The notes under the pieces were generated by a model. The model did not search any database, was not told the origin of the DNA, and saw only the letters and a program-made list of their open reading frames with translations. A stretch of DNA of 64,000 bases. Source: Raillietiella orientalis (Eukaryota). Position 1 is the first letter of the stretch. The number at the start of each line of letters is the position of its first letter. This document shows, in pieces, positions 3,001 to 48,788 of this stretch. The position numbers and the translations under genes were made by a program. The stretch is from the NCBI GenBank assembly GCA_036172245.1, contig JAYWIR010000105.1, forward strand, positions 62,001 to 126,000. The letters are read 5' to 3'.

Positions 3001-4429
3001 AGCATCGAACTGCAGGTGCAGTTTCGCATGCTGCGGCTCTGTGCCAAGCTGTGGTGTACGCCGTGGTGCTTACCCGCACGCCTTATACTGAGGCGCTGCA
3101 CGGGAAGCGAGGGACTGCTTTCGTTGCTACCCCACTTTCGGCACACCAGAATAGGGTTTGGCTTCCCGCTGAGGCAGCTGTCCTCACTGCTGGAAGCCCA
3201 AAGCTGGATCTCCTGCCGCCCCATGAACATTAATCTATGGCGGCAGGAATCTTTTTCATCGTGGGCAGCTTCCGAAGGAACGCGCCCGGAAGATCTTCGA
3301 CGCCTCCGACTTCTCCTCAGTCATCAAATGGACGAAGTCAAGCAGGACAAGAAGTTGTCGGATCGTCTGTCCGCCACACCACTCGCCGTAGCGCTGTCTG
3401 CCCTCAGGGCAAGCAACGACGGTTGCCTACCGGCGGAATGGGAGTTCTCCTGCAAAATAGCGGGAGTCAGAAAGCTCCTCGGCAGCTGGACGACAAAGGA
3501 GCTGGTGCAAGCCGCCACACCTCGGAATCGGGCGAAGGGACTGCTTCGGTGGAGCGAACATTTAAGTGTGCCCCCCGGAGAGATAGTGGTTCTTCCCGTT
3601 TGTTTGGACAGCTCCGTGTTCCCCCTTAAGTGGAAACAAGATGTGCTGCTCTTTTTACATTGTGCATTTCACTGTAATAGGCAGCGAAGCATCGTTTCCG
3701 GGGGAGCTGCTTTGCCAAACTGTTTAAGGTGCGGAGAGATCGAGTCTTTTCCGCACCTTTTGTTGGACTGCGTTGACCTCCGGGAACTGTGGCGAAGGCT
3801 CACTTCGGCCATCATGCCACAAGGAGGCACTGCCATTGATGTGCTGCGGAGCTTCTTCAGCAGAAATGGACTTTCGGTTGGCGCGATTGTCGCAACCATG
3901 TGTTGCGTTCGCGCCATCGTGAAGGCCCGCTACGCCCTGGAGTTGTCATCGCAGCGAACGGAGGCTCACCTGCTTGCAGCTCAATTCATGGAGAAGGCTT
4001 CAAGGTGGTCTCATCTTCGTGACAAGGTGAATGAGGACATCACCGGCATACATCGCCGGTTTACACACCTTTGAGAACGGCGTAATCCGGTGACCCCTGC
4101 GACCTCTCGCCCACCCATAGCCCGTCCCCGTTCGCTCGGTAAAATTTCCGGTGCCCATGCTTTTATCCCCGTGTCTTCCAGAGCGATCCCAAAGACCCTT
4201 ATCCCGTCCTCCTTATTCATTGTTTTTATTTTATTTTGGTTTATTTGTGTTTCCCGCCCCCCCACACCGTTCACAAAACTGTTACTCTGGCCTGCGTGCC
4301 AGCAATATTCTCTTCATTCTTGTTCAGTCGTCGGTTGGGAGTTTGGTTCCCAACTGGTTTATTTTGTATAATTGCTTTTTTTTTGGTTATGTTATATGGA
4401 ATAAACGCCCCGGCGTGACCGGGTGAGAA
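1..4429 (+). mobile_element. L1/Tx1-type non-LTR retrotransposon L-a (5' end outside window)
   Basis: ORF1 C-terminus to 507; ORF2 with WNVNG, QE, YAP, GDFN, SDH (APE), PGEDG, WRPI, KAFD, QGD, YADD, YLG (RT), CLRCG..HLLLDC; 3' UTR ends AATAAA-cgCCCCGGcgtgaCCGGGTG-agaa. Confidence 0.95.
507..4074 (+). pseudogene. ORF2 (APE endonuclease-reverse transcriptase) of L-a, two frameshifts (~750, ~2870)
   Basis: ORF-track pieces 504-845, 704-2998 and 2860-4074 join into one ORF2; the second shift lies in a C run and could be a sequencing error. Confidence 0.9.
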
Positions 4430-6318
4430 ATCTCTTGCGCTTGTTCTGCAGAGATCACATGGATCTCCTGCAGCAGCACAAGGTCGAACGATCCTAGAAT
4501 GGCGGCCATGTCTCGTTTCCTACCGGCGTCTGTCATGCCGTTCACATTCCAAACGGCGATGCGCAGACGACGGCGGGAGGAGATTCCCGGCATTACTGCC
4601 GGGAAGATGACGGTGTGGGGGAACCCGCCTCTTCCGAGGCGGGTGAGATGACCATTAGGGTTTCAGCCTCCGCAGGCACCTTCGGTACCTCTCCGGCTTC
4701 AACCCCCTCCATCTCTCCGTTTCTGTGCGTAGTGGTCTCTCGGGTGACGATTCCCGGGATTCTCCCACGCTCATGGCACCCTCGCAGTCGGAAGTCATCT
4801 CCACGCCTTCGGCCTGGAGAGGGGCTTTCCAGGGTTTGCTAGACTTCTTTCCAGCCTTCCGGCGGGGTGCCGCGTAGATGGAAACTTGGTTTCCGGCCTG
4901 CGCTTCGGGGTCGGAAGTTACCCACTCCTCGGTGGAGGCCGGACGCCTCGCTGCCTTTTTGCCAGCCTTGGAGGGGTCTGGCTGCAACGATGCAGACAGC
5001 TCCTCCGCCGCACGCTCCAAGGCGGCGTCATCCATCACGGTCTCGATGACGGACGCTTCCGCCGGTTCGCTCCCCACGCTGTTGACATTTTCAACAGTGG
5101 GTTGCTCGTCGGTAGCAGCGATTTCTACCTTGCGGCGTTCGGCGGGGACGCGTTCCACGACGACGCTGCATTCTTTAAATTCTCGCTAACCTGCTTTTTT
5201 TATTTTGGTGGGCGAGCTTTTTTGCAATTCGTCGTTCATTCTTCCACTTTTTCTTTTTTGCTGTGGCTTCTTACCATTTCGTCAACTGAGTGCTTTTGTC
5301 GATCTTTTCAGCATTCGTTGCCGGAATGTCGGCTGCGGCCTCGACCACGGATGTGGGTGGCACAGCTTGAACGGCAGCCTTCGCCGCCAGCCTTTGCTGT
5401 GGCAGCCGCGCGCGTTTTTTTAGGTTCCTCGCGGAAACCACGCGCACAGCGGATTGTGGACACACTTCCTTCGTGTGGCCCATTGTCCCGCATACCAGGC
5501 ACTGTACGTTGAGGCACCTCCTTTTCAGGTGTCCCGACGTGTTGCAGAAGTCACAGTATTTGGGCTTCCCCACGTACCAGAGGTCGACGCTTTCTGCGCC
5601 GACCACCAGTTTCTGGTGAAGGGTAGAGCCCTCCCGAACGGTTACACGGGCAGCCGTGAGGCCGCACTGAACTGTGGTATAGTCCTCGAAAGGACTTGGC
5701 TTGGTCTATACCGCATGGACCGTGCCTTCTTTTCCCAACGCGGCGCGTAACTGCTCTTTCCGCATCCGCGCGGTAACTCCTAAAATGTGGACCACCATAC
5801 TGTGGTTCGCCATAATGGGAAGGAGCCTGCGTTGTTCCATCACCACGGAAGTTTTGAGCAGACGTTGGGCCAGATCTGCGTATTTGCAGATCACCTGTAC
5901 GTACTTCTTCCTGCTACGAATGGTCATAGCGCAGAGCTTCTCCTCTTTAAAATCGAGAGCGCGCATCTTCTTCGAAAAGGCGCGCCCACTCTCAGGAGAA
6001 TACAAATCTCCTTCCTTGTAGAATAGTGATGGGTTATAACCCTCTTCTACATAGGCAGATAATTCCGCCGCGGCAGCAGGTGATGGCGCCGACACGACGG
6101 CGCTATACGCCCGCGCTGCAGCGGGGACCGGTTTTGTGATGGCGGACGCCCTTACCTCCTTCGCCACTAAAGGCGACGTTACCGCCGCCACCTGGCACGC
6201 ACTGGCGGTCGTGTCAGGCATTGCTGCCTGATCGACCACCACAACACACGAAGCCTACACCTAGGAACGGTTCCCGGCACGAGGAGCACCGAGGAATTAC
6301 GTCCGCTCTAACTGACGT
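4430..6318 (-). mobile_element. LINE L-b: 5' end, decayed ORF1 and first ~55 codons of ORF2, cut by L-a
   Basis: ORF1 ATG at 6221; knuckles CDFCNTSGHLKRRC and CLVCGTMGHTKEVC; ORF2 MPGISSRRRLRIAVWNVNG from 4593. Confidence 0.9.
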
Positions 6319-8476
6319 AAAGCGTTCGATTGCGTCGACCAGGAACTCCTTCTGGAGCTATTGGAACTCTTGGAATTCCCGAAGGTCTTCCGAACTTACC
6401 TGCACTTTTGCGGACGCTTCGCTGTAATAAACATTTCTTTTAGCGGTTTGGCACGTGTACGGCGTGCCGGTTTGGCGTGGCATAAGGCAGAGTGACAGTC
6501 TGAGCCCCTTGCTCTTAAGCTTCTACTTCGAGATGGTGCTGAGGGCATACAGGGAGGCTTTGGCATCCCTGTCGAGCTCATGTCCCGGCACGCCTGCCGT
6601 GTCGGCCTATGATGACGACCTTCTGCTCCTGCTCCCCGGGTCCACTCCGGAGTCGGCGCTCGAGGATTTCTTTGAGTTGCGGCGCCGCGGGACGGGCCTC
6701 GAGGTGAACAGAAACAAATCCCCAATCGTTCCTACATCACCACTGCTTTTTGCAAATACGGCGTGGGCCGGACGGTCGGACTGGATCCGCTTAAGGATAC
6801 CCACGGGCAGGTGCTTCAATTACCTGGGCGTTTCGTTGAGGGACTTCTGCGTTGCAGAAGCCTGATCCGACCGTCTCCAAAAGGTGGAGTTGGCGATCGG
6901 CCTGGTCCGGAAGGGCAAGTTTTACTTGAAGGAGCGAGCCGCGGTGTGGAACGCTTTCGCGGCCTTCCTCCTTCGGTCCTTAATTTTTGCTTGCCCCGCC
7001 CCTTCGATCATGCAGAGACGGACTAAAGCCCTCTTGAGAACTGCCCTTTGGGACACAGCGAGGTCGCGTGTCCGATTGAAAGACTTGCGCGCTCCACGCA
7101 GGGATGGTGGCTTGGGCCTCCTTACGTTGGAGCGCATTGAACTGCACATTTCACTTCGTAAGTTAGCCCTTGCGGCTACCTTATGGATGACGCCTTGGTG
7201 CGATCCGGCACGGCTCCTCGCCAGAAGAGCGACCGGCTTCGAAGGATTGTCCTCGATCCTCGTGACCTACCAGCACAGCCTCTGCATATGTGGCCCCCAT
7301 TTGCGCCAGATTGTCGTCCTGATGAGGAAGAATACCTGGATCTTCTGCCTCCCCGCGAACTGCACTGTCTGGCTTCAGGAGTCAGCCTCCGCGTGGGCTA
7401 AGATCAACGGCACGAGCGAGACGGAATACAACTGCGTACGACGAGGACCGTACGATCGACAGCCGCCGCAGGAGATTATCAACACACCCCGGAAGTGTCT
7501 GTGGGTTTCTTTTAGCCTCCTTGCCCCCGTTCTTTCCTCACTTGAAAACACTAGAAGCAGCAACGAGCGGACATCGTGGGAAGTGTCCTGTTTCATCCGA
7601 GGCAGAAAAAAACCTTTAAAGGCGTGGACGACTCGGGATCTAACGGACGCTGCCACCCCGAACGTCCCGCCTCACGGACTTGCGCGCTGGGAAGAGCTGC
7701 TCGCAATACCTCCGGAGTAGGTGAAGTGGCCCCCAGCGTGTTGAAATTGCGGCACACTTCCGTTAAAGGGGCAGGAGACGCCGTTGCTATTTCTGCAGTG
7801 GGGACTGTTAAGCACAGCACGTTTTTCTCACTGGACACTAGGGAATGTGGATGCTCGCTGTGTCGAGTGCGGAGAAACAGAAACCTTCCCCCATCTCACC
7901 CTAGAGTGTGTCGCCCTGGATGGACTCTGCAGTCGAATTGCTCCAATCCTCCATCTTCCAGTAGGCGACCCTAAGGAAATTAACCGTCGCCTCTTTCTGC
8001 GTGACGGCCTGCGCCCCGCTGCGTTTCTAGCAGTCGTTTGCTGCGTGTGCGGCATTGTGCAAAGGTGGCACGCCAGAAGAATAGGCCCAAGATGCAGGGA
8101 CGTCATCCACTGGACGACGATCTCTTTGGAGACGGCGACAAGGTGTGGTCTACCTTTCACAGTAAAAGCTGACTTGACTGCATCCTGAACAGGATGCGGA
8201 AGACCGAACCAGGCGCCCAGTGATCCCTTTACTCTCCTCCACCTCCCCATAGAACAGTTTCTCATCCCGTTATTTCCGTTTTTTTTTTTTGTTTCCTTTT
8301 TCCCCTTTCCCAGCGCCTGGGGAGATAAACTCGGCAATCTAAGGACCGAGTAGGGAGTACATTGTAGCGTGAGAGAATTCAGTGTTCCTCAAAGAAAATT
8401 TTTTTTTTAATCAGTTTATTATCTAATTTTTGGAATAAATTTGAAAGATGAATGCCCCTATATATCCGGGTGACAA
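6319..8476 (+). mobile_element. LINE L-c: 5'-truncated (mid-RT to 3' end), decayed
   Basis: KAFDCVDQ at start, SAYDDDLL, CVECGETETFPHL; ends ccgggtg-acaa. Confidence 0.9.
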
Positions 8477-11400
8477 ACGTTGGCAGTTCCCGAGCACTGC
8501 AGGCCTTGGTCGTCGAGCAGACATGCCGCTCCTGACTGCCAGACCGGGCGCTCGGCCTTGGCCTCGTACTCCGCAAGGTACCAGACGTCCGTGCATCCAG
8601 AGAATTGGCGGGCCTGCAGAAACTCTTTGCTGTTGGCCACTCCTTCCCCGAAGCCATGACAGAGCAGGTGCAAGGAGAAACGGCTACAGAACTCGCGGAC
8701 TGATCTTTTCAGATCGTCCCAGTCCACGGGCGAAAGCGGACGGCTTTTATTTCGCTCTTCAGCGTTGGTGGTTTTATTTTTTTCTTTTTTTTCTTGGTGT
8801 GTTAGTGGATTCGGTGGTGGCTAGGCAGCCATGCCTGGGATCACCACCAATGTTAAGGAGGGAGCGAAGTCTATGTGTCCTCTTGAATCAATGGATGTGG
8901 GGGCAACCGCCCCCACAGAAGCGACTCCCTTGCTAGGGAGAAGCTGGAGTTCCGTGGCTGCGGCGCCAACGCAAGCGGCTGCGGCTGAGTTGAAAGCCTA
9001 CCTGGAGGAGGGGTACAATCCCCCACTACTCTACAAGGTAGTCAACCTTTACACCTTTGAGAGTGCACGCGCTTTCTCAAAAGCGATGCACTCCCTCAAA
9101 GTACCCCAGGAGGAGCTCTTGGCGATGGCCATCAGGAGTGGTGGACAGTACGTTCAGGTGATTTCCAAAGAAGCAAGTCTTGCCCAGCGTTTGCTCCGTA
9201 TACCTGTTTTTTTAGGGAATCGCCGGCTCTTATTAATCACGGAGGATAGATCTATCGTGATCCACCTTCTTGGAATCACCTTCCGGATGGCCCAAGAGGC
9301 TGTCCGAAAGAACTAATTGAATTTGGGACTGTCCACGCGTTGTGGAATAGGTCGACTCCGTTTTGGGGGTACGATCTCCTGAATTGCGGTGTGGCTTCCG
9401 CGTGCATCACGGTCCGCGAGGGTTGCTCTCTACCTAACGAGCTGGAGGTCAACGGCGAACCCGTTGACTTCTGGTATGTCGGTAAGCCGCATTTCTGCGG
9501 GCATTGCAGCACTTCAGGTCACCTGAAAAAAGGGTGCCCCCACTTGCAGTGCAAGCAATGCAAGCAACCCAAGCACACTCTTCCTGTGTGCCCGCAAAAT
9601 GAAGTCCGCGTCGCGTCCGCACGGAATGCGAAGAAGCGCGCGGCGAGAAAAAGAAGAGTTTAGGCAGCCCGAGAGAGAGCCGCCGCTCGAAAAACAACTA
9701 TCGTGACGCAGGTGAAGGTTAGCTCCGAGATCTTGAAAAACTCGGACAAGGTCGAGGAGAACGGCGAGAAACCTTTATGGCAAGTAGTAAAATTCAAGAG
9801 GTAGAAAAGCCTCAAGGAACCAAAAAAAAATGTCGCGAAACGCAGCGAGAATTTGCCGCGTCGCGAAAATATCAAACGCTGCTCTGTCGTCATCAAGCGC
9901 ATTCCTGCGGTCGAACCGAGCGGCAAAATTGCACTCGTCGCTGCCGACCTTCAGCCCTCCGGTAAATTAATGCCGGCGGCTATCGACCCGGCGGTGGCAT
10001 CCGTCCTCGAACGCATGCTCGATGACGTCACCTTTGAGCGAACGGAGGAGGAGCTCGCTGCGTCCTTGCAGCGTCCCCTTAAATCCGCGAAAAAGGCCTT
10101 AAGGCGTCCGACCTCGATCAAGAAGTCGGAGATTTCGATCTCTGACGCAGAGACGGAAAACACAGCCTGTGGCATCGCGGCATATCGCCCGAAGCCAATC
10201 GCACGAAGCAGGCTACCCGCATAATTATCCCGTCCGTAAAAAAGGGTTAGATAATTGAGGGAACCGAGCGTGCGTATAAAGTGGGGAACTCCGGGGACTC
10301 TCCTCGAGAGGTAACCTTACGCTGCGACCCCGGAGGGAGGGAAAGGGTAGAGTCTGTGCCCCAGATGCTTCAAGTGCCTGAGATGGCCGCGGTCCCCTTA
10401 CTCGTCCCTCCCACCTGTCCGTAGACAGGTGCTGCAACGCCACGTTCCCAGCTTTAATGCCAGAAATCGCCTCTTGCCGCCGTCTGCGGATTGCCTGTTG
10501 GAACGTCAACGGGCTAAGCGACGACGGCAAGAGACGAGACTTGGCCTTCACCCTGGCATCGTTCCACCTGGTGCTGCTGCAAGAGATCCACGTGATCTTC
10601 GCTGATCAAGCAACGAAGATCGAGCGTATCACGGGTAGACGGCTGCTATCGCGTTGCGGCACCGTCAAATCTTGCGGTGTCGCGTTCCTACTTCGTCCAG
10701 CTTTCGAGGCTGCGGCAAAGAGCGTACGGTTCGATAGTGCCGGTCGCGTCGGGCAGTTGACCATTAGGTGGTCGGACTCCATTGATCTGATCATTACCAA
10801 CGTGTACGCCCTAAGCGGCAGCGACGCAATAGGGGCAAAGGCAAGTTGAGATTGCTTCCTTACCCTGAGGCGCGAATATCTGGACGAAGCGGTAGTGCGC
10901 AAAGCGCATCTAATCGCAGGTGTCTTTAACCTGCGCCTGCTGTCAGGTGCGTGCGACACACTTCGGGACCGCATGAACGAGCTGTGCGCAGAGATGCACA
11001 CGCTTAACTTGTTTGCGGGAGATCCGGAAAGGAACGACAGCATAGATCACGTGTTTCTTGACCAGCACCTATGCTCACGCGTGGGCAGGCGCGGCAATTT
11101 ACCGTCGGAACTGTCAGACCATGACCGGATCGTACTCGAGGTGCTCCCACGCGATAGGGGTCCGCCGTCATCTGCGTGGCGCTTACCGGGGGACTAGCTG
11201 AATCTTCCGGAAGCCGCAGAGCATCTCCGCGGATTCATACGAGGTTTCAGTTTGCCGACGCTCCAGGACTGGGACCGCTTCAAGCGCTCGGTCCGGGATT
11301 TTTCCGACGAGTTCCCTATGAATCTCCTGCCTGCCGGGTTTGGTGAAAGCGTGCGTAACGAGAGATGGTATTTAAAATCTCGATGTTACGCGCGAACACC

Positions 11401-14400
11401 AGACGTACGCAGGCTAGCCGAATACCTTGCGGGAACCAAGAGGCAGGCGTGGCAGCCGGGTCGGCCAGCTTACTGGACGACCAGGACACTAAGCACTCGG
11501 CTCCCGTTCAGGTAAAAGGCTTATTAAAAAAATTCTACTTATCCCTGTACGCGCGCGCTTTACCGGAACAGGATGTTTCGCGACTTCTTCTTCCGGAAGG
11601 CGCTCCGGCGATCCGGGAGGAAGATAGAAAGACCCTCGACGAGCCTTTCACAATGGGCGAGATCATCTCGGCCATCGGAAAGCTCAAGAGGCGGAAGGCT
11701 CCAGCGAAGGACGGAATGAAAGTGGAATTTTTTTAATGTTTCCCAACAAAGCTCACTCCTCTGGTGAAGAAACTCACCTTGCTGATCCGCGAAACGGGCG
11801 ACGTCCCCGCCTCGTTTCGTTCGGCAAAGGTGCGTCTCCTCCCTAAAGGAGGAGACCTTCGGAGCATGAGCAACTGGCGGCCGATTACCGTGATAAACGC
11901 GGACGCCAAGTTGCTGGCGAAATTGTGGGCTCAACGCCTGGGGCGGTCAGCGGAAAGCTTCATTAGCCCGGAGCAGACATATGCTGTTCCTGGGCGGAGC
12001 ATGGATGCCAACCTGTTCCTCGCCAGCACCTTTTTCGCGCTCCAACAGGGAAGGGTCAGGAAGGGCAACCGGACTTCCGGAATGTCCGCCGCTAGGAAAC
12101 GGGATGGTTGGGGGGGGGAAAGATTCCTCGCAGTCGCAGTCGATTTGCATAAAGCATTCGACTGTGTCGACCAGAGGCTCCTCCTGGAGCTCCAGGAACG
12201 CTTGGGCTTCCCGGTCTCTTTGCTGACCTACCTGCGATCCTGCTGGCGCGACGCGCTCATCCAGATCTTTTTCAGTGGACACACCGTGCACGGCGTACCG
12301 GTGCGACGCGGCATACGGCAGGGAGACAGCCTGAGTCCCTTGCTCTTCAGTACCTACTTCGAGTTGGTACTGAGAGCGTACAGCGAAACTCTAGCGCACC
12401 TGCCGCGCGACTATCCCTGTACGCCCGCGGTGTCAGTATATGCAGCCGACCTACTGCTGCTGCTTCCTATGTCAACCCCGGCATCGGCGGTGGAGGAATT
12501 CTTCGACCTTCTAAGTCGGGGAACCGGGCTTGAGGTGAACAGGGCGAAGTCGTCCGTCATGCCAATCGGTGCGGCGTGGGCAGGGCAGCCGGACTGGGTC
12601 CATTTAGGGATTCCCACGGTACCGTACTTCAAGTACCTCGGTGCACCGATGGGTGATTATCTTCCTTCGGATGCGTGGTCCAGCTGCCTTCAAAAGGTAG
12701 AACGGCGATCGGCCCGTTCCAAGGCCGCAGGTTTTTCATGCCGGAACGGGCCGCGGTGTGTGACGCATTCGCGGCCCCCCTCCTCCGTTTTCTGCTTTTC
12801 GTTTGTCTTCCCACCACAGAAACTAAAAAGCGGACAAAGGACCTCCTAAGGATTGCCCTGTGGGGTAATGAGGTGCACGAGTCCACCTTGAGGACTTGAG
12901 CGCTTCGCGTCGGAACGGCGGTCTCGGCCTCCTGACGCTAGAGCGGCTGGAGCTCCAGCTCCAGTTTGGGTTACTCGCCCTAGTGGCGAAATATTGGAGT
13001 AACAGTTGGTAAGAGCCCGCACGTCTCCTCGTCGAGCAGGCTACAGGCAAGGTGGGACTGTCATCCTTTCTTGCGCTCCGTCGGCGCCGCCAAGTCGGTC
13101 ACGGCGGGTTGCAGCTGCGGACAGTGGCTGACCTGATGAGGAAGAACGCGGGATGGCTCTGCTGTCTCCCCATTAATGGACCTTCATGGCTGCAGGAAAC
13201 CGTTCAGACGTGGGCAAGGATCAACCATCAACGCACCCAAGAAGAACAGAGACAATTCTTCGCCCGTAATGACCGCCTGACGCTCCGGGAGGTCTTGGAG
13301 AGCCCCCAAAAGCAAGCGTTGAAAAGAAAAACTCCTCTATCTCAATGCTGTTTTCCCCAGTGAAATATCCTGACAGCAACGCTGCGGCGGCATAGGAAGT
13401 GAAAGCTGAAACCTTCGGTACGGAGAAATAAATTGGGCAATGGAAAACAGGGATTCCTTGAGAAACTGCTGCTTGGATAACAACCCAATTGGACTTTTGC
13501 GCTGAGGCAAGCTGCTAAATGTCACGCGGTAACAATTAAAGTGGTCCCCGGTGCTGATGAACACCTCCACCCTCCTTTTAAAATGGCAGGAGTCGGCGCT
13601 TCTGTTGCTGCATTGGGGACTCCCCTGCAACGCCCGCCGACACCATTGGACCTGGGGAGCGGTGAGCTTTAATTGTGCGAGGTGTGGAGCACAAGAGTCC
13701 CTCTCTCACCTCCTTTTGGATTGTGTGGCTCTTCGGCCCCTTTGCAACCATTTTGCCGCGGCAATCGGTATCCCCTGTGGCAATCCCAGAGACGCAGTTA
13801 GGTCCCTCTTCGTTTGCAATGCCCTTCGGCCTTCGGCCTCGTTTGCAGCCCTGTGCTGCTTTCGCAGGATCGTCGCTGCATGGAGCAAGGCAACGGGAGG
13901 ACCACGCGATATAGGTGCCGTCCAGTGCGCAGCCGAATTTATGAGGACGGCGACTGGATGGACCCATCTGGATACATCAATCATAGAACAGCTTGTTGGC
14001 ATTATAGAAAGAATTGAACGGCCCCGCAGCAGATTGTGATCCCTTCCCGTGCTCACCAGATCTTGTTTTTATATTTCCTATTTTTCATTTATTACTTATT
14101 GTTTTATCCCAACCCCCTTAATTTTCGTGGTGGACCGTACCCGACTGGGAACCGGTGAACCGGCAGACTTATTTTTGTTTGTTATTGCGTGGCTGGAACA
14201 CCAGTTTTGCCACAGTGTCTCGATTTATTCGAAACAATAAGCAACTTGGCGCAACCGGGTGAGAAGCGAGTTTACAGATGGCGAAGCCACTCAAGTGCTG
14301 GCGAAGATGCTCCGCCGCTTCCGGATTGCTAGTCCAGTCGGCCGACAACCTCCAGACATTCATCGGAGGTCCTTTGCCAGGCGGAAGATGCTCGCACTCT

Positions 14401-34082: not shown

Positions 34083-34290
34083 TTGTCACCCGGGTGCGCC
34101 GGGGCGTTTATTATAAACTATCCGGGAACAGGGTTCCCGGACAAAGGGTAGAACAAGAGACGAAAGGGGTGGGATCCCCGACACGCAGGTCGGTATGCCG
34201 AAAGTCCGGAACGGGAAGGAAGGGACCACAAACACACTACTATATAAAAAAATAAAAGAAAAATATGGAGGGCAGGGGACAGGGGTCTTT
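34083..34290 (-). mobile_element. LINE L-k: 3' UTR-only fragment
   Basis: - strand AATAAA-cgCCCCGGcgcacCCGGGTG-acaa and a CCGAC-ctgcgt-GTCGG hairpin. Confidence 0.8.
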
Positions 34291-36899: not shown

Positions 36900-39839
36900 T
36901 TGACACCCGGATGTGCCGGGGCATTTATTTCCTTGAAATAAAAGTACATGAAGTGTCGCGTGGCGAACTCCAAGGTTCACCACTGCAAAACAGCTCGCTG
37001 GTTACCGGCTCCATGCCGGAGAGGTCCTTCCGGTTCGCGGGGATGGGAAATAAAGAAAAACAAAAGGTAACAAAAAGTTTAAATGTGGGGGGGAACAAAT
37101 GTTGTAGGGGTGGGAAGGCCGGGAAGGGATCACGGTGCGCGTGGGAAGGTCCTCTAGTTCCTATTCAGGATCCGCACAAGCTGAGTCCTTTCAGCGCCCA
37201 AGTGGCGCCACTTGCAGACACTGCGCGCGAAAAGGCGAGTCCAGTGTAAGGCGTTGCCGGTTGGCTGACGCCATCTTCTGGTGGCGTTCCAAGCCGCCAC
37301 TATTCCTCTGATGCAGCAGAGGAGTGCTACACTAGCGGGCGGGGACAAGGCGTCACTACAGAAGAGGCGCCTGAAAACGTCCTTAGGGCCGCATCCGTGC
37401 AAGTCCAGGATCCCCGCGAGACGATCCCACAAAGGGCGGAGGGTGCTACACTCAAGGAGAACGTGGGGGAATGTTTCTTTTTCCCCACACCAGTCACAAT
37501 TGGGATCCACAGCCCCACGGGTGGTGTGGTGCAGGCGAGCTTTAAATGGTAATCCCCAGAGTACCACAAGCAACGCCACATCCTGCAATTTCAGGGGGAG
37601 GGATGCACTGTTCCAAAACGCTGGGGGCCACTTCATCTCCTCCGGAGATAGTCCGAGTAGCTCGCCCCAGCGTCGAATTCCGTTGGGCGGGACACTCGGC
37701 GTCGCAGCGTCAGCTAGCTGCCGAGATGTCCACGCCGTTATCGATTGTGTCCTGCCGCCTATAGTGCAGGACACGGTCCATTTCCCCTGCTCGCTACTGT
37801 CCCTGGCATTCACAAGGAAGGGCAGCACTGGGGCGAGTGGGTTTATCAAGGCCCACAGAAGCTTGTCGTGGGACTGCACGATCTCCTGCAGCGTCCAACG
37901 GGCGTGCCTTTTCATACAAGTGTTCCTTGTGCCCGCCGGAACGTGGATCTTTTCCCAGGTGGAGACTGACTCGTGCAACCAGGCGGAGTAGTTCCCTGGG
38001 AGGCAGGAGATCCAGGCGTTCTCCCGAACCGTAACAAAGATGCGCCGCAGCATAGAGCCACAGTATGGTCTTCTGCAGACGCGCGCAGACAGAAACGACA
38101 AAAGTCCGCCGATTCCGCAGGCTCGTTGGGCCAGGAGGCGTGCTGCAACGCACCAAGGCGTGTCCCACAATTCCGCCGCAAGGGCGAGAGTCCTGAATCG
38201 AAGTTGTAGTTCCATGCGCTCCAGCGTAAGTACGCCAAGTCCACCGTCCTTACGTGGAGCGCACAAGTCTTTGAGCCTCACACGGGACCTCCCTTTGCCC
38301 CAAAGGACTGTCCTCAGGAGGCCCGCTGCTCGTTTCCGAATAAAATAAGGGGCGGGGCAAACAAAAAGTAGGGGGAGAAGGAGGGGAGCCGCAAACGCGT
38401 TCCACACAGCGGCCCGTTCCTGCAAGTAGAACTTGCCTTCTTGGAACGGACCGATCGCCAACGCTGCCTTTTGGAGTCGGTCGGACCAGGCTTCTGCTGC
38501 GCAGAAGTCCCCCAACGGTACGCCGAGGTACTTGAAGCACCTGCCCGTGGGGATCCCCAAGCGGATCCAGTCCGACCGTCCAGCCCACGCCGAACCGACG
38601 AACACCATGGACGACTTCGACCTGTTCACCTCCAGGCCCGTCCCGCGGCGCAGCAACTCGAAGAAGTTCTCGAGTGCACTCGCCGGGGTGGACCCGGGAA
38701 GCAGCAGCAGAAGATCGTCTGCATAGGCCGACACGGCAGGCGTGCCGGGACACGAGCTCGGCAGGGTTGCCAGAGTTACCCTGTATGCCCTCAGCACCAA
38801 CTCGAAGTAGATGCTGAAGAGCAAGGGGCTCAGGCTGTCACCCTGCCGGATGCCGCGGCGCACTAACACAGCGTACACGTGCCTGCCGCTGAAACCAATA
38901 TTGATTGACGCGTTGCGCCAGCAGGAGCGCAGGTAACATTGAAGCACGGCAGGGAAACCCATGCGTTCCAGGAGCTCCAGAAGGAGAACCTGGTCGACGC
39001 AGTCGAATGCTTTGTACAAATCGACCGCGACGGCAAAGGCTCCCGCCGAGTCCATCCCACCCTCTGCCCGATCTTCTTGGTCAGAAGGGGGCGCGAGGCT
39101 CCCTTGACCGTCCTGTGCAACGCGTTGTCGCAACTGCCACCATGAGCTGGCGAGGAGCAGGTTGGCCTCCATGGTTCGTCCGGGAACAGCATAGGTCTGC
39201 TCGGGACTCACCACGGAAGCGGCCACCCGCCCCAAACGCTCAGCCCACAACTTGGCATACACCTTTGCGTCCGCATTCACTACTGTGATGGGACGCCAGT
39301 TGCCAATGTTGCGTAAGTCTCCTGACTTCGGCAGGAGACGTACTTTTGCTGACCGGAACGAGGCGGGAACTTCGCCGTGTTCGCGGATCAGCGTACTTAA
39401 CCTGAGCACCAGGGGGGCCAGCTCTGGCGCGAAGTGTTTGTAAAACTCCGCGGGCAGGCCGTCCTCCCCTGGTGCCTTCCTTCTCTTGAGCCTGTTGATG
39501 GCGGAGATGATCTCCGCCATCGTGAACGGTTCCGCCAATCTGGAACGGTCCTCCTCCTTGAGCGCGGGAGCGCCATCCGGCAGCAGGCGCTGCGCGAAAT
39601 GGCGCTCAGCTGTTAGTGGCGCGTACAAGGAGGAATAAAACTCCCGCACGATGCGGCTTACCTGGGCGGGGCTGGAGCGTTCTTGGCCCTGATGATCCAG
39701 CAGGCAGGCCGAGCCTGACTGCCAGGCCTGCCTCTCCGCCTCAGCCTTGAATTCAGCCAGGCGACGGTCGTCGGGACGCCGGGAATAACGGCGCGCCTGG
39801 AGGTACGCCCGCTCGTTCCTGACACCCTCACCGAAGCCC

Positions 39840-41388
39840 TTTCCTGGAAGGCAAGTTTCACTTGCCGGAACGGGCCGCGGTTTGGAACGCCTTCGCGGCC
39901 CCCGTACTCCGCCCCTTGCTTTTTGTTTGCCCCGCCCCCGTGGAATCGAAAAAGCGGACGAAGGACCTCCTCCGCATAGCTCTTTGGGGCAAGGGGAGGC
40001 CCCGAGTCCCTTTGAAGGACTTGTGCGCTCCGCGTCGGGACGGCGGTCTCAGCATCCTGACGCTGGAGCGCGTGGAAATCCAGCTGCGATGGCGGACCCT
40101 CGCCATCGCAGCAAAGATGTGGAGCACCGCTTGGTGCATTCCGGCCCGTCTCCTGGCCAGGCGTGTGTCCCGCTGCGAAGGACACGCATCGTTTCTCTTG
40201 TGCCCTGGCCGGAAGATTCGAAGATGCGGTCTACTGCTCGGCCGCATGGCAACCCTGGCAAAGGAGAACGACTGGATGGTTTGTGTCCCTGCCAACTCCT
40301 CCGCTTGGCTGAAAGAGACTGCTGGCACCTGGGCCAAGCTGAACCAGAGGTGCGAAGACCAGATGAACTGCCTGCGAGTCGGCTTTTACGCCCGCCGAAC
40401 TCTCCGTGAAATACTTGAATTTCCACCGAGTTGCACGTGGGCGGAAGGCACACCCCTTGTTACGGCGATGCCCTTCCTCCAAAGGGCGCTTCACGGAAGC
40501 CGCAAGCCAAGGTGGCAAGTCTGCTGCCGTATCGCAGGCAGAGAGAAGATGATCAGCGGCTGGACCATGGGAGAGTTGACAGATGCAACGACCCCTAGTC
40601 TCCAGGCGCGTGGATTAAGAAGATGAAACGAGCTGCTCGGCATTCGATTGGATGACCTGAAGTGGCCCCCGGTTCTTCTTGGATCCAGGATTCATCTTCT
40701 GAAGTGGCAAGAATCGGTGCTTCTGTGGCTGCATTGTTGTCTACCCTGCAACGCGCGCCGCTTCCACCGGACGCGGGGAAGAGTAAATCCTGCGTGTGCC
40801 AGGTGTGGGGAGCGGGAGTCGCTCCCCACCTTATAGTTGAATGCCCTGCCGTCCAGTTTCTTTAGTATCGTTTGAAAACGGCCCTCCGGATACCGGATGG
40901 TGGCAATGTTGGATGTGTCTTCAGTCTTGTCTTCGTGCGGGACGCCCTCAGTCCAGCCGCAGCCCTGGCAGCACTTTGCAGCATTCGTGGTATCCTTGCC
41001 TCCTTGAGTGATGCCAAAGATGAAGACTACATCGTGAGGGACGTCAACGAGTATGCTTCTCGCTTCCTGCAGAGAGCTACCCGATGTCCCCACCTAGGAA
41101 AACTGAAAATGGAACTAGAAGGCATCCTGCAAAGGATGGGCGCTCCCAGCAGTTTTCTGTGATCCCTTCCCGGCCCTCCAAACTTTTTTTTTTGTGGTTT
41201 TTTTTTCTATTTCATCTTATTTTTGTTTTTTCTTCCATCCCCCTCTACTGCCGAGAAGAGCCACACCGGGCTGCGTCCCGGTGTACCGGCAGTTTCGGCA
41301 TTCCGTGGCCGTCAGTGGGGCTTTGTACCACGTTCTGTATTGACCGTTGAAATGTTTTTAATAAACGTCCCGGCGTATCTGGGTGGCA
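39840..41388 (+). mobile_element. LINE L-o: 5'-truncated copy closely related to L-p
   Basis: Nearly the same sequence as ~45505-47050; ends ctgggtg-gca. Confidence 0.93.
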
Positions 41389-41400
41389 TCGCCGAAAGCC

Positions 41401-44400
41401 GGTGTGGGTGGACGTGTTTTTTGGTCGCTCCGCCAGCGCTTGTCTGGGAAGCAACCGGAGTTTTTAGTGTAGTCAGGTGTAAAGTGTGGGTCGTCGGTGT
41501 CCGATTGCAGCCGTGCCAGACGACACCGCAATGGATGTAGTTGTGGGGAAGGCAAGTCCTTCCACAGGACCTACGGGTATGGGTGGAATAGTCCCTGGAA
41601 CGTCTTCGCAGCCGGCGAAGACTTGGAGTGAAATGGTCGCCGCCCTTAGTGCGGAGGCCATGGCCGAGGAAGCCGCCTATCGGGCCTCTGAATACAAGTA
41701 ATCGCTTGTATACAAGGTAGGCCCTTTGTTTGAAGGAAACACGGCGCGCTCTTTCAGCAGAGCGCCACAAAATGCTAATGTCCGTAAGGAAGTTCTGGAC
41801 GGTCTGTGCGTGCTCAGCGGGGCGCAGCGGGTTGAGCTGGTGTGCAAGAGCATCAGCCTAGCCGATCGCCTTATATATACCCCGCTAATCATGGACGGCC
41901 GTAAGATCTTCCCGGTGTCAATGGACCACTCGGTAGTGGTCCACTTGACAGGAATATCCAAGCGCATGACGGGCACTGCCGTAAAAGCAGAATAAAGTAA
42001 GTACGGGGACGTACACGCGCTGTGGCCGAAGCCCATAATCTTTGAGAATTACGGACGCCACTTCGGGGGCCTCGCCGCGGCACGCGTAACCCCAAAAAAC
42101 GAAGCGAAGCTACCCCACAAACTTGAGGTCGCGGGAGAACCAGTAGACCTCTGGTATGCTGGCAAGCCACGGTATTGCGGCTACTGCGATGCGGTCGGAC
42201 ACATCCGTAAGAGGTGCCCGAACATCGTATGCTACTTGTGCGGGGAGAAGGGACACGTCCGTCGCGTGTGCCCTAAACGCCCCACCTTGATTTTCTCGGC
42301 CGCCAAAAAGGCGCAAGCGAAACGCGCGGGGAAAGAAAAATTAGAAAACCGTGAAACTGGCCGAGAAAAGCTGCCAATAACCCAAGCTCCAAGCGCGGCA
42401 TCGGAGAAAAATCTTCCCGAAACCGCAGAGGGTGAACAGGGCTGGCAGCTAGTCAAAGCCAAAAAAGAAAAACAGGACAAGCATGTCCCGAAGAAAGGAG
42501 AGAAGGCGGCGGCCGGAACAAAAGCTCAATCCGTGTCGCGCGTAAAAACTCTCCGAGAATGCACGGTTACGCTGGAGCGCATTGACGTTCCCGCCGACAC
42601 CACCGGAGGCGATACGGCTTCGATCGATTTTCCCGCCGCGACGAATGCGCGCGAAAACCCACCCCCTGCTTGCGAAGAGGGTCAGCCGGACGACCAAATT
42701 GCCGAAACCAAGGACGCAGCCTTCGAGAAGGCCGCCGAGGAGCTTGCGGCAACGCTTGCCGAACGCGAGAACCCTTCGCGAAAGGGGTTGCGTAGGCCGG
42801 CAGCGGCTAAAGTGGCCCCCGCAGGTGAGTCGGACCGGGAGGCCGGAAGTGCATCCTCCTCTGCGGACGCACCACCAAGGAAAGCGGGGCGAAAATCCCA
42901 GAAACCCCGAAGGTGCATTCCGCCTCCGCGCGAGGGGGATCCAATGGAGGAGGAACCAGTGGATGACAGCGTGGGAGCCCAAGTCGGGCATTACCCACGT
43001 GCGGAAGCCGACGAGAAGGCGACTCCAATGGAGGAGGGTAACCAGGGGTCAGCAATGCCCTCTGAAACCGCCGAACCTGAACCACCCGCACCAATGGATG
43101 TGGGCCAACAGGTACCAACAACACCCCCTTCGCACGGGCAGCCGGAGACGTCGGCACGTGAGAAGGATGGGGAGTTGGTGGGCAAGACGCCAACCCCGTC
43201 CAGCGACCCGCCCCAAAAGGTGGCGGGAGCACCACCGCCAGGTTCCCAGGAATAACACCTGGACTCGCCTGTCGCCGTCGGATCCGCGCGGCCAGTTGGA
43301 ATGTTAATGGGCTGCGCGACGACGGAAAAAGACGAGATACAGCCGCCACCTTGCGAGATTTCGACCTGGTGCTTTTGCAGGAGATCCACGTGATCACCGC
43401 AAAAGACGCTCAGGAGATCGAAACGATCGCGGGAGGGCGGTTGTACTGGCGATGCGGCGCCCGCAACACTTGTGGGGTCGCGTTCTTCCTAAAGCCAGCC
43501 ATTAACGCAGCCGTGAAGGACGTGCGCTTTGGGGACGACGGACGGATCGGCCAACTGATTCTCAGATGGTCCGATTCGATCGACCTCATCGTCACCAATG
43601 TGTACGCTCCTAGCGGTAAACAGGGATACCAGCAGCGCAACGCGTTACTGCAAACCTTAAAGCGCGAATGGCTGGTGGACGCGGACGTGCGAAAGGCGCA
43701 TCTGATAGCAGGGGATTTCAACGTCCGTCTGCTCTCAGATCAGCCCGGAGCACAGGGGAACGCGATCAACGAGTTGTGCGGCGCCATGCGCGCGCTTAAC
43801 TTGTTGACAGAAATAAGCGGGATGGTCAACAGCGTGGACCACGTCTTCCTCGACGAAGACCTGTGCACACGGGTCGGAAAACGAGGGACGCTTGGATCGA
43901 CGCTGTCGGACCATTCCCGGTTAGTATTCGAGATGCGCCCGCGCGACAAGGGACCGCCATCCAGGGATTGGCGTATGCCAGGGGACTGGACGCGCCTGTC
44001 AGGAGCGAAAGAACATCTTCGCGAATTCCTGCGAGGCGTCACCCTCCAGAATCTCGCGGATTCGGACCTATTTCAGGACTCGGTCCGGGAGTTCTGCGAA
44101 CAGTTCCCAGTGCAACGTCTGCCCCGGGGATTCGACGAAGGGGCTCGCGACGAACGCGCGTATTTGCACGCGCGTCGTCACGAGAGGAACCCCAATGTCC
44201 GTCGCCTGGCCGAATACCGCGCCGGAGCCGAGCGACAAGCCTGGCAATCCGGGTCAGCCAGCATGCTGGATGACCTGGGCCGGGAACGTTGGTCCCCGTT
44301 TGCGGTACGGAATCTCGTGCGGTGTTTTTATTCCTCCCTTTACGCCAAAACTCCACCCGAACAAGACGCCTCGCGGCGATTGCTCATGAGTGGTTCCGTG

Positions 44401-47050
44401 GCGATAGGGGAGGAGGAGAGAGAAAGCCTCGATGAGCCTTTCACGACCGGTGAAATTCTCGCCGGTATCAAAAGGCTCAAGAGGCGTAAGGCGCCAGGGG
44501 AGGACGGCTTGCCCGCGGAGTTCTTTCAGAGTTTCGCGGAAGAGCTGGTTCCCCTGGTGCTCGAGTTGACAAGGCGAATCCGAGACGAAGGCGATGTTCC
44601 CGCCTCGTTTCGGTCAGCCAGGGTGAGGCTCCTCCCGAAGGGACGAGACCTCAGGAAACTTTGCAACTGGCGTCCGATCACGATTGTGAACACGGACGCC
44701 AAGTTGATTGCCGGGCTGTGGGCGTCGCGATTGGGGCAGGTGTCCAATTCCATAATTAGCCCGGAGCAGACATACGCTGTTCCCGGGCGAAGTATGGAGG
44801 ACAAGCTCTTCTTCGCGAGCACATGGATGCACGCGCAGCGGAGTAATAAAGAAGGGAAAGGGAAAATTTGCAACCCTACTTTGGGGCCGCCAGTGGGATA
44901 GGGTAGGGACCCTCATGCGGGAAAGGGGGCCTTAGCGATCGCAGTCGACCTCCATAAGGCATTCGACTGTGTTCGGCGAAGGGTCGCATGGGCTTCCCAC
45001 CCTCCTTGATTTCTTACCTGCGCTCTTGCTGGCGGAACGCGATACTCTCAATTTCTTTCAGTGGACAAAAGGTGTATGGCGTGCCGGTGCGGCGGGGCAT
45101 AAGGCAGGGCGACAGCCTCAGCCCCTTGCTTTTTAGCACCTACGCTGAGTTGGTGCTGAGAGCGTACAGGGTGACTTTGGCCCCCTTGCCGAGCTCGTGC
45201 CCCGGCACGCCAGCCGTAGCGGCGTATGCCGACGACCTTCTGCTCCTCTTACCTATGTCCACCCCGGCGAATGCGGTCGGAGACTTCTTCGATCTGCTCA
45301 GCCGCGGGACCGGACTGCAGGTTAACAGGGCGAAGTCGTCGGTTGTGCCAATAGGTGCGCCGTGGGCAGGGCAGCAGGACTGGGTCCATCTGGGGATCCC
45401 CACGGCGAGGTGCTTCAAGTACCTTGGTGTGCCGTTGCAAGACTTCTCCCCTGCGGAAGCGTGGTCCAGCTGCCTCCAAAAAGTCGAGACGGCGATCGGC
45501 CCGTTCCTGGAAGGCAAGTTTCACTTGCCGGAACGGGCCGCGGTTTGGAACGCCTTCGCGGCCCCCATACTCCGCCCCTTGCTTTTTGTTTGCCCCGCCC
45601 CCGTGGAATCTAAAAAGCGGACGAAGGACCTCCTCCGCATAGCTCTTTGGGGCAAGCGGAGGCCCCGATTCCCTTTGATGGACTTGTGCGCTAAGCGTCG
45701 GGACGGCGGTCTCAGCATCCTGACGCTGGAGCGCGTAGAAATCCAGCTGCGATGGCGGACCCTCGCCATCGCAGCGAACATGTGGAGCACCGCTTGGTGC
45801 ATTCCGGCCCGTCTCCTGGCCAGGCGTGTGTCCCGCTGCGAAGGACACGCATCGTTTCTTCTGTGCCCTGGCCGGAAGATTCGAAGATGCGGTCTACTGC
45901 TCGGCCGCATGGCAACCCTGGTAAAGGAGAACGACTGGATGGTTTGTGGCCCTGCCAACTCCTCCGCTTGGCTAGAAGAGACTGCTGGCACCTGGGCCGA
46001 GCTGAACCAGAGGTGCGAAGACCAGATGAACTGCCTGCGAGTCGGCTTTTACGCCCGCCGAACTCTCCGTGAAATACTTGAATTTCCACCGAGTTGCACG
46101 TGGGCGGAAGGCACACCCCTTGTTACGGCGATGCCCTTCCTCCAAAGGGCGCTTCAGGAAAGCCGGAAGCCAAGGTGGCAAGTCTGCTGCCGTATCGCAG
46201 GCAGAGAGAAGACGATGAGCGGCTGGACCATGGGAGAGTTGACAGATGCAACGACCCCTAGTATCCAGCCGCGTGGATTAAGAAGATGGGGCGAGCTGCT
46301 CGTTATTCGATTGGATGACCTGAAGTGGCCCCCGATTCTACTTGGATCCAGGATTCTTCCCCTGAAGTGGCAAGAATCGGCGCTTCTGTGGCTACATTGG
46401 GGTCTACCCTGCAACGCGCGCCGCTTCCACTGGACGCGGGGAAGAGTAAATCCTGCGTGTGCTCGGTGTGGGGAGCGGGAGTCGCTCCCCCACCTCTTAG
46501 TTAAATGCCCTGCCGTCCGGATTCTTTGGGAACGTCTTCAAACGGCACTTGGAATACCGGATGCTGTCAACGGTGGATGTATTTTCAGTCTTGTCTTCGT
46601 GCGGGACGCTCTCAGTCCAGCTGCAGTCCTGGCAGCTCTTTGCTGCATTCGTGGTATAGTGGCGGCCTGGAGTGATGCCGAAGATGAAGACTGCATCGTG
46701 AGGGATGTCATCGAGTATGCTTCTCGCTTCCTGCAGAGAGCTACCCGATGGACCCATCTAGGAAGGATGAAAAAGGAACTAGAAGGCATCCTGCAAAGGA
46801 TGGGCCCTCCCAGCAGTTTTCTGTGATCCCTTCCCGGCCCTCCAAACTTTTTTTTGTGGTTTGTTTTTCTCTTTTATTTTATTTTTGTGTTCTCCCTTAT
46901 CCCCCTCTACTGCTGAGGAGAGCCACACCGAGTTGCGTCCCGGTGTCCCGGCAGTTCCGGTATTGCGTGGCCGTCAGTGGGGCCTTGTACCACGTTCTGT
47001 ATTGACCGTTGAAATGTTTTTAATAAACGTCCCGGCGTATCCGGGTGGCA
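41401..47050 (+). mobile_element. LINE L-p: full-length (~5.65 kb) with stops in ORF1 and a stop plus small deletion in ORF2
   Basis: GGACGTG 5' motif; ORF1 to 43255; ORF2 pieces 43351-44901 and 44988-46826; ends ccgggtg-gca. Confidence 0.95.
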
Positions 47051-48397
47051 TCACCGAAGCCCGGCGGAAGACGTTCCAGGGGAACCTGGTCGCAAAACTC
47101 ACGGACTGAGCACTTCATTTCATCCCAGTCCGCGAGCGTCTGAAGCTGGATTCCTCGCAGGAAACAGCGTAGATCTTCCGCCGCTCCTGCGAGGCGCAAC
47201 CAATCCCCTGGCAGGCGCCATGTTTTCAGGGGAGGGCCCTTATTGCGCGGATGTAACTCGAGCACGAGCCGTGGATGGTCGGACAGCTCTGCCGGGAGCG
47301 TTCCTCGAGTTCCCACCCGCGTGCACACGTGGTTGTCGAGGAACATGTGGTCGATGTTCCGATCTCTCCCGGCATCGCCGGCCAACAAGTTGCGCGCGTG
47401 CATGGCTGCGCACAACTCGTTGACCAGCTGTGCTCGTCCGCTGGGCGCACCTGCCAGCAGGCGGAGATTGAAATCGCCCGCAATGAGATGCGCCCTTCGC
47501 ACGCCTGCTTCGGCCAACCAGTCTCGCCGCAAGGTTTCGAAGAACGCAGTGCGTTCCTCGGCCCTGTGGCTGCTCACCGGAGCGTACAGGTTCGTGACTA
47601 CGAGTTCGATCGAGTCGGACCACTTGAACACAAGCTGCCCAACTCGACCATCCCCGTCGAACCGTGCACTGCGCAGTGAGTTGTCGACGGTTGGCTTTAG
47701 CAGAAAGGCCACTCCGTAGGAGTTGTCCGTTCCGTTCCTCCACAGTAGCCGCTCTCCCGCGATTCTTTCGATTTCCTGGACATCTCTTGGTCGGAGAACG
47801 TGCGTCTCTTGCAGGAGCACCAGGTCGAAGTCTCGCAGTATGGCGGCTACATCTCGCCTCTTTTTGTCGTCGCGCAACCCGTTGACATTCCAACAGGTGA
47901 TGCTCAAGCGGCGGCAGGAGGCGAGCCCTCGCATTGGTGTATTTATGGTGGGGTGGAGGCGGCCTCCTCCATTTCGGGAGGCGGCTCGTTGGCGGCCGTG
48001 ACGACGGTCGGCTGCTCACCCGGGAGCACGTCGTCAGCAGCGACTTCCATTGCGCTGGCTTCCGAGGCGCGGACGGGAGAAGGCTCGCGTGACGCGACGC
48101 ACATTGCCTCCTCCTCCGTGCCCGAGGACATGGACTCCTCCACTTGGGAGGAGGCGACACTTCTCGGGCATCCGGCCTTCTTGCCAGCTTTCCTCTTCGG
48201 CACGGCTGCGGAAGTAGAGCAACCGGCTTCAGCGTCGGACCCGGAAGATTCCGGGCCCTTCGCCGTCGCCGGTCGTCTCAAGGCCTTCTTTTCGGATTTG
48301 GCAGGCCGCCTGAAAATGGCTGCCAGCTCTTCCGCGGCCTGCTCGAAGGTCGCGTCTTCGATTCGCGCCACCTCCTCGCTTTCCGCACCGACACTCG

Positions 48398-48788
48398 TTT
48401 TCACCCGGATATGCCGGGGCATTTATTCAAAAGAATAAAATCACAATGGATTGTCGCATGGTGAACCCAAAGGTCCACCACTACAAAACAGCTTGGTATT
48501 TACGGGCGCTATGCCGTAGAGGTCCATCCGATCCGCGGGGGTTGGGAAAGAACAAAACAAAAAACAAACAAATAGTTGAAGTATGGGAGGGAGCAAATGT
48601 TTCGGGAATGGGAGGGCAGGGAGGGGATCACCGTGCGGGCGAATAGGTCCTCTAGATCCTATTTAGGATCCGTACAAGCTGAGTCCTCTCTGCGCCCAAG
48701 TGGCGCCACTTGCAGACGTCTCGGACGAATAGGCGGGTGAACCGTAAGGCGTTGCCAGTTGGCTGACGTCTTCTTCTGGTGGCGTTCC
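48398..48788 (-). mobile_element. LINE L-q: 3' fragment of the L-n subfamily abutting the satellite
   Basis: NATRRRRQPTGNAL..RILNRI* matches the L-n C-terminus; terminus ccgggtg-aaaa at 48398. Confidence 0.9.

Follow-up and report, generated by a model that had tools for sequence, protein, structure and literature searches.

Does a long interspersed nuclear element (LINE) in the genome of Raillietiella orientalis insert into copies of itself, and if it does, how are strand and position chosen? Self-targeting is a way for a mobile element to multiply without harming host genes, and it builds centromere- or telomere-associated LINE arrays in some algae and fungi. We analyzed one window, a stretch of 64,000 nucleotides (nt) of contig JAYWIR010000105.1, to which all counts and P values below refer. 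A preliminary description had proposed that a LINE family in this window takes itself as its target, mostly antisense and in the 5' part of its second open reading frame (ORF2). Our results support the conclusion that the family inserts into itself within this window. The account that we favor, with some reserve, is insertion primed at a target that the endonuclease has nicked, with the ORF2 5' region of the family itself as the preferred place.

Eleven 3' ends joined to the same family

From position 1 to about 48.8 kb, the window is densely filled with LINE copies of one family with 53-63% G+C, and LINE DNA amounts to 36.2 kb, or 57% of the window. Pfam searches identified a CCHC knuckle in ORF1 (PF00098, 2.9e-05 in copy O and 2.3e-04 in copy I). 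ORF2 encodes an N-terminal APE-type endonuclease (PF03372, E = 1.8e-13 to 2.7e-17 in several copies), followed by a reverse transcriptase (RT; PF00078, up to 9e-21 in several copies) and then a C-terminal zinc-binding domain (zf-RVT, PF13966, detected in copy M at 3.9e-06, with 27.9 bits against a cut-off of 27.5). The element starts near AGAGCGGACGTGTTTT, and its 3' end consists of AATAAA, a CCCGG-N5-CCGGG hairpin and TG-N-N-A-A, without a poly(A) tail. Subfamilies share 50-75% nucleotide identity, and the close pairs are N-O (93%), L-P (90%) and L-M (87%). As a reference we used copy O (41405-47050, plus strand), which is full length and nearly intact, with ORF1 and with an ORF2 that a single break divides into pieces of 579 and 622 codons. 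The copies carry the insertion signature of target-primed reverse transcription, namely precise 3' ends, 5' truncation of varying extent and duplicated target sites. Four copies (B, E, I and O) have intact 5' ends, whereas the 5' side is truncated or cut in seven of the 11 copies that have a 3' end; the 5' end of copy A lies outside view. Truncation at the 5' end is thus common, which fits a target-primed mechanism, for which it is usual. By its ORF1 and ORF2 domains and its insertion signature, we conclude that the family is an APE-type non-LTR retrotransposon (one without long terminal repeats) of the L1/Tx1 superfamily.

The strict 3' end motif matched six times in the window, compared with zero matches expected. 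A profile hidden Markov model, built from the 11 claimed 3' ends and searched with all filters off, recovered those 11 ends and no other below E = 1. We mapped the flanks by tblastn with the ORFs of copy O, by self-comparison of the window and by a MAFFT alignment of the ORF2 5' parts. Codon numbers are those of the stop-to-stop frame of copy O from 43162, in which translation probably starts at an ATG about 31 codons downstream. Family DNA adjoins all 11 of the 3' ends, nine of them antisense in ORF2 and two sense in ORF1. The profile and the flank mapping therefore agree with the earlier claim that every recognizable 3' end joins sequence of the same family. The nine antisense junctions, which had been placed within the first ~370 codons of ORF2, were indeed found at about codons 55-364 when counted from the likely ATG.

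Three of the ORF2 sites lie within the endonuclease-coding part, and the remainder lie in the linker before the RT. Closest to the start of ORF2 is the junction at 4429, where copy A (1-4429, plus strand) abuts codon 86 of copy B (4430-6309, minus strand). Copy A, identified by tblastn, Pfam and the 3' profile, extends from about ORF2 codon 28 to its 3' end, with homology from 462, and its 5' side reaches the window start or beyond; its host B retains an intact 5' end, ORF1 and ORF2 to codon 86. At 34083, copy J (34083-34304, minus strand, about 220 nt of which the terminal 35 nt alone are recognizable) meets codon 95 of copy I (32050-34082, plus strand), which likewise has an intact 5' end, ORF1 and ORF2 up to that codon. 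Copy R (28105-28320, minus strand), of which the 3' untranslated region (UTR) alone is recognizable, ends at 28105 against codon 125 of the decayed host fragment S (27737-28104, plus strand), which runs from the ORF2 start to codon 125. Further into ORF2, the full-length copy E (8732-14265, plus strand) joins host fragment F (14266-15159, minus strand, codon 299 to about the ORF2 start) at 14265, opposite codon 299. The 5'-truncated copy N (39840-41388, plus strand) and copy O end at 41388 and 47050, respectively, both opposite codon 326 of a host that we call M/P. At 41388 the antisense flank is merely a 14-16 nt copy of the target duplication, followed by the 5' end of O. Two invaders face codon 382: copy C (6318-8476, plus strand, 5'-truncated at about ORF2 codon 592), whose 3' end at 8476 adjoins host fragment D (8477-8731, minus strand, codons 382 to 297), and copy K (34305-35283, plus strand, a 5'-truncated copy with C-terminal ORF2 and 3' UTR), whose 3' end at 35283 adjoins host fragment L (35284-36899, minus strand, codon 382 back to mid ORF1). 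The last of the nine is the 3' end at 31823 of copy G (28837-31823, plus strand, 5'-truncated at codon 300), which lies against codon 395 of host fragment H (31824-32040, minus strand, codons 395 to 323).

The two sense junctions lie in ORF1, 107 nt apart, and the flank mapping confirmed their orientation as first described. M (36900-39839, minus strand, its 3' end up to ORF2 codon 322) ends at 36900 in L, about 50 codons upstream of the conserved FEQAAEEL motif, which leaves L between the 3' ends of K and M. Copy Q (48398-48801, minus strand) is the last 400 nt of an element, with its 3' end at 48398 in P (47051-48397, minus strand, ORF2 codon 326 back to mid ORF1), about 15 codons upstream of the same motif, and its 5' side at the satellite. 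None of the 11 ends lies in the RT, the C-terminus, the non-LINE block (15160-27736) or the satellite (48802-64000), in agreement with the earlier account except that we measured the block as 12.5 kb. In the nine ORF2 junctions, seven plus-strand invaders lie in minus-strand hosts and two minus-strand invaders lie in plus-strand hosts. Because both absolute orientations are present, we conclude that the bias tracks the host copy, and not the chromosome or the direction of replication.

Split hosts and reused sites

Host halves are present on both sides of three invaders, E, N and O. Copies N and O stand in tandem at one M/P site with three copies of a target duplication of 12-14 nt, in the order M ending in TCACCGAAGCCC, N, TCGCCGAAAGCCGG, O, and then TCACCGAAGCCCGG running on into P. 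The first duplication copy is the last 12 nt of M (39828-39839), the second (TCGCCGAAAGCCGG, 41389-41402) lies between the 3' end of N and the 5' end of O, and the third is the first 14 nt of P (47051-47064). M, from its 3' end to codon 322, and P, from codon 326 into ORF1, are the downstream and upstream halves of a single colinear host of the L subfamily (M-L identity 87%; P-L identity 90-94%). We conclude that host M/P was struck twice at the same nick. Similarly, E lies antisense at codons 297-299 between D (from alignment column 911) and F (to column 916), which are the downstream and upstream halves of a host D/F and are both nearest to subfamily A. Since the hosts are split, it follows by construction that such clusters disable relatives of the element, as had been suggested.

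The C/D and K/L junctions share one alignment column, and both follow the GT of the valine codon at position 382. D and L are 60% identical and have their nearest relatives in different subfamilies (D nearest to A at 78%, L nearest to M at 87%), so the two hits at codon 382 are independent events. In addition, the intact 5' end of I joins H at codon 323, 3 nt from the M-N join, and this is probably a third insertion, by I, at the codon 322-326 site in a second host. Two pairs of independent events each reuse one site in hosts of different subfamilies.

For an estimate of chance, the null model placed flanks at random in the 36.2 kb of LINE DNA, with ORF2 codons 1-400 occupying 8.5 kb and one strand allowed. 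The probability of at least nine of 11 ends being antisense in the ORF2 5' zone was 1.9e-7, and with N and O merged as one event the probability of at least eight of ten was 1.3e-6. Orientation alone gave P = 0.033, and the probability of all 11 flanks being LINE was about 0.002, given that LINE DNA is 57% of the window. Most copies are 5'-truncated, and random nesting should therefore favor 3' regions, which is the opposite of what we observed. When nine sites were drawn at random in 1200 nt, at least one exact coincidence occurred in 3% of trials and at least two coincident sites occurred in 0.03%.

The DNA itself shows where the junctions lie and on which strand, that hosts are split, that targets were duplicated and that sites were used more than once; we infer that the bias goes back to the choice of site during integration and not to subsequent loss. 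Under the account that we favor, new copies would integrate by endonuclease-initiated, target-primed reverse transcription and would strongly favor family members already in place. Nicks would preferentially fall in the coding strand of the host, at ORF2 codons of about 86-395, which span the endonuclease-coding part and the linker before the RT, and a few positions would be used repeatedly. A nick in the coding strand leaves the invader antisense, with its 3' end against the 5' part of the host. Within the window, the split hosts, the duplications and the site reuse bear out the earlier proposal that the target is the family itself.

How the site may be chosen

We examined several features that could mark the preferred sites. 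The sites occupy at least seven distinct positions spread over about 930 nt. No shared motif was detected at eight distinct sites, where the information within 8 nt on either side of the nick was reached by 60% of random sets; in this test, a missing junction side was inferred from the nearest intact copy. Local conservation did not mark the sites among four subfamilies, in which they ranked at the 35th-51st percentile. The GC skew of the coding strand over the target zone was flat in copies O and E (-0.05 to +0.10). Where invader and host could be compared, their identity was 50-76% (A-B 58%; E-F 50-58%; E-D 54%; O-L/P 61-71%; G-H 76%), values at which invader RNA would not hybridize stably with host DNA. 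These tests speak against recognition through a common local motif or through pairing of invader RNA with the host, and the suggestion of guidance by RNA homology is not upheld.

Several observations weigh against self-insertion by preferential nicking as we have set it out. With neither motif nor conservation at the sites, sequence recognition by the endonuclease alone fails to explain the reuse of a column in diverged hosts. The site coincidences were spotted post hoc, and a single window is the basis for the pattern. The duplication around E is at most 5-6 nt long and degenerate. Host continuity at the 5' side was seen for three of the nine invaders with a visible 5' boundary (E, N and O) and is missing for the other six (C, G, K, Q, R and J); a sense C-terminal fragment stands before G, and the 5' side of Q runs into the satellite. 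The lack of host continuity in six of nine cases indicates that junctions were reshaped by later insertions, deletions or non-canonical joining, and that the cluster is heavily rearranged. Finally, the intact 5' end of B adjoins C antisense at about codon 592, in the RT, and if B is a simple insertion into C, then the unseen 3' junction of B would lie outside the favored zone.

The pattern could also arise if LINEs are drawn to, or tolerated in, a heterochromatic or centromere-near region, with nesting being incidental and with strand and position resulting from nick hot spots, small numbers and loss. The cluster does adjoin at least 15 kb of a 277 bp satellite, its rearrangement and the six invaders without host continuity fit such a region, and its orientation bias alone is of limited significance. 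LINE clusters at centromeres with flanking satellites have been described (PMC9940879). However, position and strand together remain at a P of about 2e-7 even with LINE DNA as the sole target, no end lies in the RT or C-terminus although 5' truncation enriches 3' regions, and the same column was reused in hosts of different subfamilies. We regard regional accumulation as unlikely, if worth keeping in view. Somewhat more doubtful is a transcription-coupled process, in which an R-loop or transcription bubble some 1-3 kb from the promoter of a transcribed resident copy displaces the coding strand, which is nicked there and primes antisense insertion. All nine ORF2 events prime from the host coding strand, transcription of hosts B and I is conceivable given their intact 5' ends, and the sites are explained by neither a local motif nor conservation. 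The coding-strand GC skew, however, is near zero in O and E, the two ORF1 events are sense and thus used the template strand as primer, and exact reuse of a position is unexpected from a diffuse single-stranded zone. The targeting by a transcription bubble or R-loop that had been put forward in the preliminary description thus gained no support. The invader-host identities exclude a hybrid with the invader's own RNA, and an R-loop formed by the host copy's own transcript may still serve as a targeting cue.

Two further explanations dispense with site choice at a nick. Chimeras could form without a nick if a free 3' end of the host coding strand primes reverse transcription of another family RNA, or if the polymerase jumps between templates, as LINE reverse transcriptases are known to do. 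This would explain the missing host halves in six of the nine testable cases as well as the head-to-head pairs B/C and J/K, and the two sense ORF1 junctions resemble end-to-end jumps from a truncated template. Yet both halves of the host lie around N, O and E, and N and O also have target duplications, a configuration that calls for staggered cutting of duplex DNA. For D with E, an origin by twin priming on a single RNA is excluded, as the two are 53.7% identical over columns 920-1165 and D continues as F beyond E; it is unlikely for H with I, since H-O identity is 65% and I-O identity 86%, values measured over different regions. We consider nick-free chimeras improbable. The whole pattern could instead be secondary, produced by segmental duplication of a few junctions, by recombinational loss of sense nestings or by assembly error, and we hold this to be very improbable. 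L with the 3' part of M and P with Q do share a similar layout, and recombination between direct repeats would be expected to erase sense 3' junctions and to spare antisense ones. Nevertheless, a distance of 107 nt separates the L/M and P/Q junctions and their two sides have diverged to different degrees (L-P 90% vs M-Q 79%), the C/D and K/L junctions involve different subfamilies on both sides, and the invader-host identities, mostly 50-76%, are too low for efficient homologous recombination. Moreover, losing sense copies would not produce a position bias, and all 11 junctions fall exactly at the 3' terminus of the element.

One public DNA run (share of words 0.22) yielded 113 short contigs with 95-99% identity to the window. 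Among the rows listed, no contig was long enough to bridge the junctions, and there were 29 loose ends; at this length and identity, these contigs neither confirm nor refute the assembly. In one contig, 47062 is connected back to 41389 through a single extra letter, which could reflect a tandem layout, genuine variation or mapping misled by the similarity between N and O. Another joins 48394 to 36815 with 20 other letters, which fits another copy of the L/P subfamily with ORF1 uninterrupted where Q interrupts P.

A feature shared by all 11 junctions is that the 3' end of the invader faces the ORF1-ORF2 boundary of its host, from downstream in the nine antisense cases and from upstream in the two sense cases. 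L and P each have inward-facing 3' ends on both flanks. Just before the endonuclease-coding part, a covarying hairpin is kept in nine of nine copies (for example at 43200-43270 in O, at 10402-10470 in E and at 4580-4651 of the minus strand in B), with a stem sequence that differs between subfamilies, as judged from single folds. RNAalifold missed the hairpins on an alignment of the boundary that was out of register. A second hairpin contains or adjoins an overlap of the ORF1 stop codon with an ATG (TAATG or TGATG) in A, B, E, F and S, and in B and F this overlap lies within the loop of a predicted hairpin. The overlap suggests that translation of ORF2 may be coupled to that of ORF1. We hypothesized, with only two upstream events to draw on, that the ribonucleoprotein docks at a conserved feature near the boundary and nicks the strand that runs 5'-3' away from it, up to about 1 kb to either side. 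We view this idea with about as much doubt as transcription-coupled targeting, or slightly more. If it is true, the LINE would recognize its own kind across subfamilies that are only 50-60% identical, and a boundary-docking LINE would build inverted arrays able to give double-stranded RNA.

The wider cluster and comparison with known systems

The remaining sequence of the cluster consists of short joins and fragments between the copies described above. B and C lie with their 5' sides head-to-head, 8 nt apart, and J and K are also head-to-head. Filler that is foreign to both neighbors was found at the 5' ends of B (6310-6317, 8 nt) and I (32041-32049, 9 nt, following H). The filler at B ends in ACGT, which matches the four letters after the 3' end of C at 8477 and could be the leftover of a 4 nt target duplication or due to chance. 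Upstream of G lies fragment S7 (28601-28770, plus strand), a piece of C-terminal ORF2 corresponding to residues 423-487 of the second ORF2 piece of O, without a 3' end. Copies I and K, both about 65-70% identical to O, may be one element with an internal deletion.

The LINE cluster is interrupted by the 12.5 kb non-LINE block, which has a lower G+C content and in which a Pfam search with 12 ORFs gave no match. Within it is a palindrome at 17053-25248, with arms of about 3.76 kb each (17053-20811 and 21485-25248) that are 97-98% complementary and are separated by a spacer of 673 nt. The block is bracketed by decayed ORF2 5' fragments in opposite orientation, belonging to F (14901-15159) and S (27737-27996), which are 69-72% identical and whose homology to each other ends at one shared position of the family, close to where ORF2 begins. 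Either the block was inserted into a LINE, or it forms the center of an old inverted duplication. At the other end of the cluster, the homology of truncated copy Q stops 11 nt short of the satellite, which continues to the window end (48802-64000). It has a unit of 277 bp in 55 copies with 90% matches, 42% G+C and a positive AT skew.

Relatives of the family are few. A protein search returned a single close relative, with 65% identity, on a contig of 2.9 kb, and all others had at most 31% identity. The best named relatives are hypothetical proteins of fish, tick, frog and Mucorales with 23-30% identity, and at this level the family is no more than a candidate member of the Tx1 group within L1. 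Scanning metagenomes with the 3' end motif gave 106 loci, of which none encoded an ORF1 or ORF2 relative by tblastn, and these motif matches are thus due to chance. Protein-profile scans gave 236 pattern matches in genome contigs and 142 in viral contigs, with no relatives in either, and an Atlas protein search gave nothing beyond generic LINE clusters.

Self-insertion has precedents among non-LTR elements. Zepp is a LINE that targets its own copies (PMC8226300), and Zepp and ZeppL are L1-type LINEs of the green algae Chlorella, Coccomyxa and Chlamydomonas (PMC3446292, PMC8226300, PMC9940879). They resemble the present family in self-targeting, in forming localized nested clusters that are GC-richer than their surroundings, and in having satellites that sometimes flank the clusters. 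Zepp is described as forming tandem arrays in the same orientation, mostly of 3' ends, whereas here nine of 11 ends are antisense in the ORF2 5' third, and same-orientation nesting in the window occurs only in the chain of Q, then M/P, then L. Exact reuse of a position, as seen in the present family, is a further difference. Zepp has poly(A) tails, whereas the present family ends in a hairpin. Cnl1 of Cryptococcus is a non-LTR element that inserts preferentially within itself and forms nested arrays (PMC9942834). It is alike in self-insertion and nested arrays; it differs in that its copies lie in tandem orientation beside telomere repeats, whereas here they are inverted and lie beside a 277 bp satellite.

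Two other comparisons concern the junctions. Target-specific APE-type LINEs (Tx1L, Keno, Mutsu, R1 and TRAS/SART) have one target sequence each, a fixed orientation and precise, reused junctions. The present family is like them in its precise and reused 3' junctions in a repeated target and in its ORF2 architecture. It differs in using at least seven positions that lack a motif, in a target that is its own coding sequence. Rather than one conserved target sequence with a fixed orientation, as in a site-specific LINE, we found an orientation that is fixed in the ORF2 zone (9/9) but reversed in ORF1 (2/2). In mammalian L1, twin priming leaves antisense LINE sequence head-to-head with a sense 3' part, which resembles the arrangement of antisense and sense parts described here. 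There, both parts derive from one RNA and the 3' end lies against non-LINE DNA, whereas here the antisense parts come from other subfamilies (D-E 54%) and continue as split hosts.

A literature search for antisense self-insertion of a LINE into ORF2 found no such pattern described; the search was limited and prior publication is possible. If the preference holds, backward insertion into a defined part of the gene for its own enzyme, with positions reused across diverged subfamilies, would represent a form of target choice that is new for endonuclease-bearing LINEs, and it would pose a recognition problem, as motif, conservation and RNA homology all fail here. Inverted arrays are natural sources of double-stranded RNA and could thus feed small-RNA silencing of the family. 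If the pattern is genome-wide, the nearly intact copy O would provide a testable system. Taken together, we conclude that self-insertion of this inverted, ORF2-directed type is a variant of the known self-targeting.

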